64,000 bases of DNA, from positions 416,001 to 480,000 of the forward strand of contig CM000153.2 in the NCBI GenBank assembly GCA_000004695.1, in the 5' to 3' direction. The notes beneath the pieces are model-generated. The model saw only the letters and a list, made by a program, of their open reading frames with translations. It did no database searches and was not told the DNA's origin. Below, in pieces: positions 27,932 through 29,571 of the stretch. The DNA is from Dictyostelium discoideum. Its lineage: Eukaryota. The first letter of the stretch is position 1. Each line of letters opens with the position of its first letter. The translations under genes were made by a program, and so were the position numbers.

Positions 27932-29571
27932 TTACCAATTTAAGAATATTAATATAATGAAAATTAAAAATAAAATTAATTGTTGTGGAATTAATAATTT
28001 AAAAGAGGTTGCAACGAATATAATGTATGGGTCATGATTTTCGTCATAAATCGGGAACGATAATTCTACTCTTGAAGATTTCTCATTAACCAATGAAGCC
28101 ATAACGCCAATAAATACTGAATTATAATCTATTGCTGGTTCATTCATTTTATAATTATTTCTATCTTCATAATAGGTATCTTTTAAATCAATTGGACCAG
28201 GTAATAATGCTCCCAAAATTGGATATTGATTATTAATAGGATTGAATTTATCAAAATTAATTGGATTATGAGATGGACGATGATGAATATTTATTGGAAG
28301 TTTTGAATTTTTAAATCCAAATTGAGAAACATATGAATAATGGTTACTATTATTTCCAAGAATAATTTCCATTTGTTTTTTTGAATAATTTATATTTAAT
28401 GTTGATTTTTTATTATTTTTTCCAAATTGATTCTAATAAACAACCACCTAAACTATATCTATTATTACCCCATTGATCAATAAAAAATAAACCATCATTG
28501 GTTTTTGGTACTTTGGTATTCCAATAATTAATTATTAAATTTGAAACATTAATATTTTCATTTAAATTCTTTTCGATGAATATACAAGCTGCTGGTAATT
28601 TATTTGCCCATGAATAAACAACATCCCATAGATTAATGTTTGATTTAAATTTATTACATTTATCTTGATAGTAGGGTTTATATTGATTAATATTTAATGG
28701 GTCAATAAAAGATAACCATGCTGATGCCCATACTATTTCATCTTGGTAACCGTCATTTGAATTATACATTTCAACATATGATGGAACACCTTGATGAGTA
28801 ATACCAAAATTCCATAATGATAATGCATGTTTCTTACATAATTTTGAATAATCAGAATCAATTGATTCAAAAACTTTTGAAGTTGAAGACATTGTTGCAG
28901 ACATTTCTAAAACAATGTCACTACTTGGATTATTCACATCAATGATTTGTTTTGAACAATCTCTTTTAATTGGTTGACCATTTTGGTCAATATATATTTC
29001 ATATGTTCTTTCCCATTTTGAATGATCAGCTTCAATTCCACATTGTCTATAAACTACATTTGGTTCTGGATGAGCTGCAATTAACCAATCAACACCAGTT
29101 TTTAAAGCTGATAAATACGCCTCAAGTAAACCACATTTGTCAATATTTGATTTAAATTCTAATAATGACCAAGATAAAGTTGTCATTGAAAATGATAATG
29201 GGTTTGAAATCTTTTGAAAATATATAATAAAATTAAATTAATAAATTATTAATATAAAAAAAATTATATTTGTTTAAAATAATTACCTTTAAATAATCAC
29301 CAGCATCAAAATAACCTCTTGATAGAAAACCAAAACCATGGTTATTTAAATCACCATTCATATAGGTATCAAATTTAGTTGAACTATTAATTTGCCAAGG
29401 AAACTCGGAAAATGGATCATTAATACCTGCTCTTTGTGCTTTGAAAAATAACAAACCTGCTTTCAAACCTTCACAGTAGTTAAAGTCATCATCAACAGGA
29501 ACAGAATAAATTAAATAAATATTAATAAAAAATATTATAGTAAATAAAAATAATAGTTTATTAAAAAACAT
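27932..29571 (-). CDS. Secreted glycoside hydrolase family 9 endoglucanase (cellulase), exons 29571..29287 and 29210..27932; the reading frame is interrupted by an apparent 1-nt frameshift in an A6 run near 28416..28421
   Basis: Signal peptide MFFNKLLFLFTIIFFINIYLIYS. GH9 motifs are present: FFKAQRAG, GYFDAGDYLK|ISNPLSFSMTTLSWSLLEF, DEIVWASAWL, SKKQMEIILGNNSNHYSYVSQFG, HHRPSH and NEPAIDYNSV. The protein continues in a different frame, corresponding to the track's two ORFs at 28413..29186 and 27932..28372. Confidence 0.8.

Follow-up and report, generated by a model that had tools for sequence, protein, structure and literature searches.

A frameshifted GH9 cellulase gene in Dictyostelium discoideum, probably a recent null allele of the laboratory lineage

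In the stretch of Dictyostelium discoideum DNA analysed here (64,000 nt, hereafter the window), a gene for a glycoside hydrolase of family GH9 changes reading frame in the middle of its catalytic domain, and the question that it raises is whether the break belongs to the sequence as determined, to the way in which the gene is expressed, or to the gene itself. The window has 22.8% G+C and the gene content of D. discoideum chromosome 4, and the product of the minus-strand ORF that adjoins the GH9 gene (30640..31716) is identical to Cdk11 of strain AX4 (DDB_G0283279 / XP_639135.1). An initial annotation made from the letters alone had described a GH9 gene split by a +1 frameshift in an A-rich tract, and the two frames, the stop at 28413 and the motifs on either side of it are all confirmed by our analysis, accurately to the base.

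The gene is encoded on the minus strand, from 29571 to 27932, and consists of two exons. Exon 1 (29287..29571; 95 codons, as defined by its ORF and translation) starts with an ATG at 29571, and its product begins with MFFNKLLFLFTIIFFINIYLIYS..., an N-terminal hydrophobic segment that is predicted to be signal-peptide-like; the exon also carries the DAGD motif, with Asp89 at 29307..29305 and Asp92 at 29298..29296. The single intron (29211..29286, 76 nt) has GT..AG borders (GTAATT...CAAAAG), and its removal joins ...GDYLK to ISNPLSFSM..., in agreement with the annotated proteins of intact orthologues and with a 360-aa model (P0015) from a second assembly discussed below. Exon 2 starts at 29210 and keeps the original frame down to 28416 (ISNPLSF...GGCLLESIWKK), after which a TAA at 28413..28415, premature and a product of the frame error, interrupts translation. 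The end of this first frame, frame A, reads GGT GGT TGT TTA TTA GAA TCA ATT TGG AAA AAA TAA (stop at 28415..28413), which gives ...WGNNRYSLGGCLLESIWKK-TAA as its C-terminal end. The lesion tract, AAAAAATAATAAAAAA, occupies 28406..28421, between the TGG codon of Trp358 (28424..28422) and the TCA codon of a Ser (28405..28403); within 28380..28450 the window allele contains TGGAAAAAATAATAAAAAATCA.

The remaining part of exon 2 (27935..28405, STLNINYSKKQMEIILGNN...IFLNW) is now in the +1 frame and leads to the original full-length stop codon at 27932..27934. This frame B, +1 relative to frame A, has a TAG at 28435..28433, is open from 28432, and reads from NQFGKNNKKSTLNINYSKKQMEIILGNN... to IFLNW-stop. 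Its sequence, NQFGKNNKKSTLNINYSKKQMEIILGNNSNHYSYVSQFG...HHRPSH...NEPAIDYNS...IFLNW-stop at 27934..27932, contains the HHR motif (28285..28277), the ILGNN motif and the codon of the catalytic acid Glu452 (28141..28139). Shortening the first A6 run by one A yields ...ESIWKNNKKSTLNINY..., with WKNNKKS as the local residues, and thereby the seamless frame that the initial annotation had foreseen.

That the two frames are one GH9 gene is borne out by profile searches, with matches far past chance. The upstream 360 aa match positions 1-342 of Pfam profile PF00759 (E=1.1e-65) and the downstream frame accounts for positions 347-444 (E=4.5e-24), while the repaired protein of 520 aa, obtained by deleting one A, matches all 444 positions (1-444) in a single stretch, with E=1.7e-95 and a score of 321.4 bits against a curated cut-off of 27.7. 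The repaired protein also gives one alignment across the junction with Thermobifida fusca E4 (Cel9A, 1js4; E=1.7e-53), and a full-length match of the catalytic domain was likewise found with a termite endoglucanase (1ks8; E=2.5e-49). In the alignment to 1js4, Asp89 and Asp92 of the DAGD motif correspond to E4 Asp55 and Asp58, known in GH9 as the catalytic base pair, and Glu452 of NEPAIDYN corresponds to E4 Glu424, known as the catalytic acid. The catalytic Asp pair and the Glu are thus all present in the DNA, Glu452 being out of frame in this allele. Both the Pfam and the 1js4 alignments extend over the junction, and the frame switches at the site at which the initial annotation had placed it.

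With 1js4 and 1ks8 the window gene shares the Asp pair of DAGD, the HHR motif and the catalytic Glu in NE..DYN. Unlike those two enzymes, the gene encodes no carbohydrate-binding module and has a hydrophobic C-terminal tail in its place, and in this allele the break in the frame separates the Asp pair from the Glu. The tail (...SFKLLIPQQLILFLIFIILIFLNW), encoded at 27935..28000 of the minus strand, follows a short linker and is conserved, being found in proteins P0001-P0004 too. Such an ending points to a signal for a GPI anchor or to a membrane anchor at the C-terminus, in which case the intact enzyme would be predicted to be tethered to the cell surface. The same chromosome holds a paralogue, DDB_G0283077 (Q54RL7, 'cellulase'), a D. 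discoideum protein with a GH9 domain whose cluster representative shares about 53% identity with the repaired protein. In contrast to the window gene, DDB_G0283077 has an intact, annotated sequence in AX4, with a long low-complexity insert ahead of the C-terminal tail.

A first way in which such a gene could still yield a whole enzyme is a correction in the transcript, either by a short spliceosomal intron that bridges the two frames or by slippage of the polymerase on the A runs. Formally, 79 candidate GT..AG pairs, 40-600 nt apart, restore an open frame. All of them, however, delete conserved GH9 sequence, as the initial annotation anticipated in stating that no usable intron exists, so that in no case is the frame restored without loss of conserved domain residues. 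The shortest pair, of 79 nt (28511..28433), was rejected because it takes away the conserved VPKTNDGLFFIDQWGNNRYSLGGCLL segment (WGNNRYSLGG), and the others take away more of the GH9 domain. Moreover, the intact orthologues are collinear and intron-free in this region, and the Pfam profile passes without gaps across the junction, from position 342 to position 347. With regard to slippage, efficient transcriptional slippage is known from runs of about 9 or more A/T, and the A6 run is below that length. A repair of the frame in the mRNA is therefore hardly credible.

The initial annotation had preferred an error of homopolymer length in the assembly, the true tract being in frame (A5 in place of A6, for example) and the gene intact in the strain. 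Such an error would be in keeping with the position of the lesion within an A run in a genome of 22.8% G+C, with the homopolymer lengths that do differ elsewhere between the window and a second assembly, and with the fact that the GH9 gene has no other defect. That second assembly, ACTFIT (GCA_054883475.1, CM142510.1), nevertheless contradicts it, since it agrees with the window throughout 27880..29640 (100% identity), the A6...A6 tract included. In 20.4 kb compared, ACTFIT and the window differ in the lengths of long homopolymers and in one cluster of mismatches, and in nothing else; because ACTFIT does differ from the window elsewhere, it is not a copy of it, and the two are separate determinations of one genotype, both of which contain the lesion. 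The same 16-nt tract has been obtained with different technologies, as the window shows Sanger-like artefacts and ACTFIT is a de novo assembly of Nanopore and Illumina reads (PMC12745789). The two assemblies disagree in homopolymer runs of at least 15 nt only, never at A6, and the window differs from the in-frame alleles of other isolates and species by more than one homopolymer base, there being T/A and G/A differences in the (AAT)n repeat as well. We consequently regard an error of sequencing or assembly as very improbable.

Outside the mismatch cluster the two assemblies differ by the lengths of A/T homopolymers, all of them of 15 nt or more, and the window is always the longer one, by 1 to 12 nt; the sites are window positions 34008, 25664, 25510, 25293..25360, 22064, 21940, 21671..21680 and 19972. 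The mismatch cluster, at 21680..21881, comprises 22 mismatches and small indels in an A+T-rich intergenic stretch; examples are TCCCAAAA, GGGAGGGATC and AAAAAATAAAAAGGGG in the window versus TCACAAAA, CGGAGTGATC and AATTATTATAATGGG in ACTFIT. It looks like a patch of low-quality base calls in one of the assemblies, probably the window.

As to the strains behind the two sequences, AX2 and AX3/AX4 are separate derivations from NC4. The lesion would then be older than the separation of the two, provided that the window and ACTFIT represent one of each. Holland et al. (PNAS 2025; BioProject PRJNA1300491) assembled the genomes of nine wild group-4 isolates and AX2-214 de novo from Nanopore and Illumina data, and locus tags of the ACTFIT type belong to the series of that project (PMC12745789). 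AX2-214 is the sole NC4-derived strain in the set, and ACTFIT has zero substitutions relative to the window outside the mismatch cluster, on which basis we take ACTFIT to be AX2-214, and the window to be the AX4-type reference. With NC4 as the common ancestor of AX2 and AX4, the two assemblies confirm the sequence of the allele and not its frequency in nature.

In the ACTFIT annotation the locus appears as two genes, ACTFIT_006845 (P0015, 360 aa, ending in ESIWKK) and ACTFIT_006846 (P0012, 146 aa, starting with MEIILGNN), the products of which are identical to the two products of the window. The allele is the same in both assemblies and nothing in it differs; the annotation calls it two hypothetical proteins rather than one disrupted gene. 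This public annotation might be taken literally, the truncated N-terminal product of 360 aa, alone or together with the 146-aa one, being a functional form of the protein maintained by selection, and the downstream ORF indeed has an ATG of its own at 28372. Yet the 146-aa ORF encodes no signal peptide, and its ATG is just 40 nt past the upstream stop, which leaves no spacer of the size of a promoter. The split would in addition put the catalytic acid and the catalytic base residues on separate polypeptides, and the arrangement is absent from the other isolates and species compared. A selected two-part or shortened form thus seems highly improbable, and the two ACTFIT 'hypothetical proteins' ought to be joined into a single model that is marked as a disrupted gene.

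Intact counterparts of the gene are found in close relatives. The 90% cluster of the repaired protein includes, besides the two adjacent ACTFIT models, the intact proteins ACTFIW_009161 (521 aa), ACTFIR_009998 (520 aa) and ACTFIY_004823 of D. cf. discoideum (523 aa), and gene models of 502-524 aa, collinear over the junction, are available from two other D. discoideum isolates, D. cf. discoideum, D. citrinum, D. dimigraforme and D. firmibasis. For five of these alleles (the two D. discoideum isolates, D. cf. discoideum, D. citrinum and D. firmibasis) the frame is continuous at the DNA level; the D. dimigraforme gene was compared, and is intact, at the protein level only. ACTFIW_009161, ACTFIR_009998 and D. 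firmibasis RB653_001585 (524 aa) occupy the same syntenic slot, between cdk11 and the gene for mitochondrial ribosomal protein L4. The intact orthologues are 75-96% identical to the window gene in protein sequence, have the same hydrophobic C-terminal tail, and are collinear with the spliced product of the window at the position of the intron. The difference is that they remain in frame through the (AAT)n repeat, whereas the window allele has a net gain of 1 nt and a premature TAA. A disabling lesion is therefore found here together with an intact syntenic gene in close relatives, as is characteristic of a young pseudogene. Two gene models in the genomes of the relatives deserve caution in their own right: the cdk11 model of D. 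firmibasis (RB653_001584, P0027) has 702 aa versus 355-362 aa in the others and is probably a merged model, and the GH9 model of D. citrinum (ACTFIU_000793, L013) extends over 2226 nt, encodes 508 aa and diverges at the N-terminus, a sign that its upstream first exon may be wrongly chosen.

The lesion was sized by the length of the tract between two conserved anchors, from AATAATAGATATAG... to ...CAAATGGAAATTATTCTTGG. This length is 111 nt in the window and 111 nt in ACTFIT, in both cases a multiple of three, and it is 107 nt in D. citrinum, 110 nt in ACTFIR, 113 nt in ACTFIW, 119 nt in D. cf. discoideum and 125 nt in D. firmibasis, always with a remainder of 2 on division by three. The window hence carries one net extra base with respect to every in-frame allele, and the '+1' of the initial annotation is the right description. 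All the alleles compared are identical up to the TGG codon of the Trp, after which the intact ones continue with (AAT)n, n being 2, 3, 4, 4+ and 9, and then with Lys or other codons. The break is, in consequence, a net gain of 1 nt within a coding trinucleotide microsatellite, the length-variable (AAT)n repeat directly past Trp358.

On these grounds we consider it very probable that the GH9 endoglucanase-type gene of the window is a real frameshift allele, belonging to the NC4-derived laboratory lineage and best described as a recent null allele or young pseudogene. A strain polymorphism or a young pseudogene had been among the possibilities named in the initial annotation, and its suggestion of a comparison with other D. 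discoideum strains proved fruitful, two other isolates being in frame at the DNA level and the gene being intact in four related taxa besides. The frameshift would have arisen through a net change of +1 nt in the short, length-variable (AAT)n tract for poly-Asn/Lys right after Trp358. One simple path would be a substitution of AAT by AAA followed by slippage of one A, from A5 to A6, and equally good paths would start from an (AAT)4 allele, with a 2-nt deletion and a substitution, or from a citrinum-like allele, with an insertion of AAAA; any exact path, that of AAT>AAA followed by slippage included, is a reconstruction from the present-day alleles.

How recent the lesion may be was judged from the substitutions. 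Values of dN/dS were calculated by the method of Nei and Gojobori for four alleles of the D. discoideum clade, gap-free over 1545 coding nt, with the tract left out. They are 0.13-0.15 for the window against the intact alleles and 0.12-0.14 among intact pairs, and in the part downstream of the lesion the pairs with the window give 0.12-0.13. The changes unique to the window lineage are 12 synonymous and 10 nonsynonymous (dN/dS ~0.2), 5 and 3 of them, respectively, in the downstream part, and a rough binomial comparison with the neutral expectation gives P = 2.7e-4. The value of ~0.2 is slightly above that of the other lineages (0.07-0.16), a difference that is not significant. No second lesion was found in the GH9 gene of the window, which agrees with the initial annotation, according to which the gene is otherwise intact. 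Purifying selection has thus acted on the gene during most, if not all, of the period since this lineage parted from the other sampled alleles (dS ~0.04). Neither a dN/dS near 1 nor further lesions, the marks of relaxed constraint in a pseudogene, are thus observed; the unrelaxed constraint, with dN/dS of ~0.13 upstream and downstream of the lesion alike and of ~0.2 along the window lineage, fits a very recent break, and the word 'young' is essential to the label of pseudogene. A lesion of such recent origin in evolutionary terms points to a null allele specific to a strain or lineage.

The open and constrained downstream frame could also be read in another manner, namely that ribosomes cross the break by programmed +1 frameshifting at AAA-AAA-UAA-U. 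The Lys-tRNA in the P site would slip forward at a slow stop codon, and some or all of the ribosomes would go on to a full-length ...ESIWKKNKKST... product. Frameshifting of the +1 type at AAA-UAA sites is found in Euplotes, and the AAA UAA U of the window resembles those sites, consisting as it does of slippery P-site codons followed by a stop (AAA AAA UAA U); the downstream frame is, besides, wholly open and under purifying selection. On the other hand, an AAA-TAA string is very common by chance in DNA of 77% A+T, and a young lesion accounts equally well for the constraint downstream. None of the orthologues has the frameshift (0 cases; five alleles are in frame at the DNA level, and that of D. 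dimigraforme is intact at the protein level), so the putative recoding site is not conserved. In the 113 nt of RNA downstream of it no stimulatory structure was found, their minimum free energy of -8.5 kcal/mol being like that of shuffled sequences (mean -8.65, z = 0.05). The initial annotation had deemed programmed frameshifting unlikely, and the lack of conservation and of a downstream fold lead us to the same opinion, with only the faintest chance left to this reading. Just as faint is the chance that AAA-AAA-UAA-U gives a measurable stop-stimulated +1 frameshifting, by which NC4-derived strains would make some full-length, active, membrane-tethered cellulase. Were it so, a newly arisen recoding site would offer a snapshot of the birth of an obligatory frameshift site.

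If the allele is a true frameshift mutation, as we favour, translation would stop at the TAA past ...ESIWKK and give rise to a secreted fragment of 360 aa, which would keep Asp89 and Asp92 and be without the last third of the fold, that is, without HHR, Glu452 and the hydrophobic C-terminal tail. With the catalytic acid, HHR and the tail all encoded past the break, cellulase activity is not to be expected of the 360-aa product, as judged from the residues that it would lack. The standard laboratory lineage therefore appears to be naturally null for a GH9 cellulase, one paralogue that purifying selection maintains in wild isolates and in sister species. Gene counts of the reference strain and comparisons of CAZymes undercount a GH9 gene, and work on the remodelling of cellulose in stalk and spore-coat development should bear in mind that laboratory and wild strains differ at a GH9 locus. 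The case also illustrates, cleanly and on a small scale, how a coding (AAT)n microsatellite gives rise to a non-triplet, inactivating change. As a frameshift allele it is ordinary and has no bearing on an open mechanistic question; its use lies in the correction of annotation and in the caveat about laboratory and wild strains.

The status of the locus in the AX4 annotation was approached through databases. Searches for a dictyBase identifier or pseudogene record, by way of DDB_G neighbours and of papers on GH9, gave neighbours only, namely DDB_G0283281 (strictosidine-synthase-like) and cdk11 (DDB_G0283279), and no AX4 protein (XP_/EAL) is among the members of the 90% cluster of the repaired protein. 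The absence of an AX4 protein from that cluster suggests that the AX4 annotation treats the locus as a pseudogene or omits it. The 146-aa ORF is recorded solely in the NCBI assembly, and exact look-ups of the 257-aa ORF and of the 112-aa exon-1 ORF of the window in Logan contigs gave no match. A 202-aa query spanning the junction returned no matches either, although the full-length query gave 96%-identical proteins in the same place, an outcome that probably reflects how the word index handles a query rich in A, N and K.

The Logan contigs for the GH9 gene are two very close relatives of the window allele (L006 and L007, from runs SRR28564542 and SRR26869268), both 99.7% identical to it, with 2 SNPs in 1.1 kb; other contigs, reached through the neighbouring cdk11, are only about 1.1 kb long. 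They differ from the window by substitutions at 29343 and 29443, in exon 1, and by one indel in a T run of the intron; one of the substitutions is Asn78Tyr, and Tyr is the residue of most other alleles, with Leu in D. cf. discoideum. The two contigs end at 28479 and 28556, 55-130 nt short of the lesion site. Very close wild or laboratory relatives are therefore present in public reads and could serve to date the frameshift. Elsewhere in the window, simple-sequence tracts at about 11700..11820, 14350..14510, 43740..43863, 55025..55150 and 60280..60430 match one another and related loci in BLAST with 90-100% identity, and they are presumably trinucleotide or low-complexity repeats of the kind that is typical of coding and intergenic DNA in Dictyostelium.
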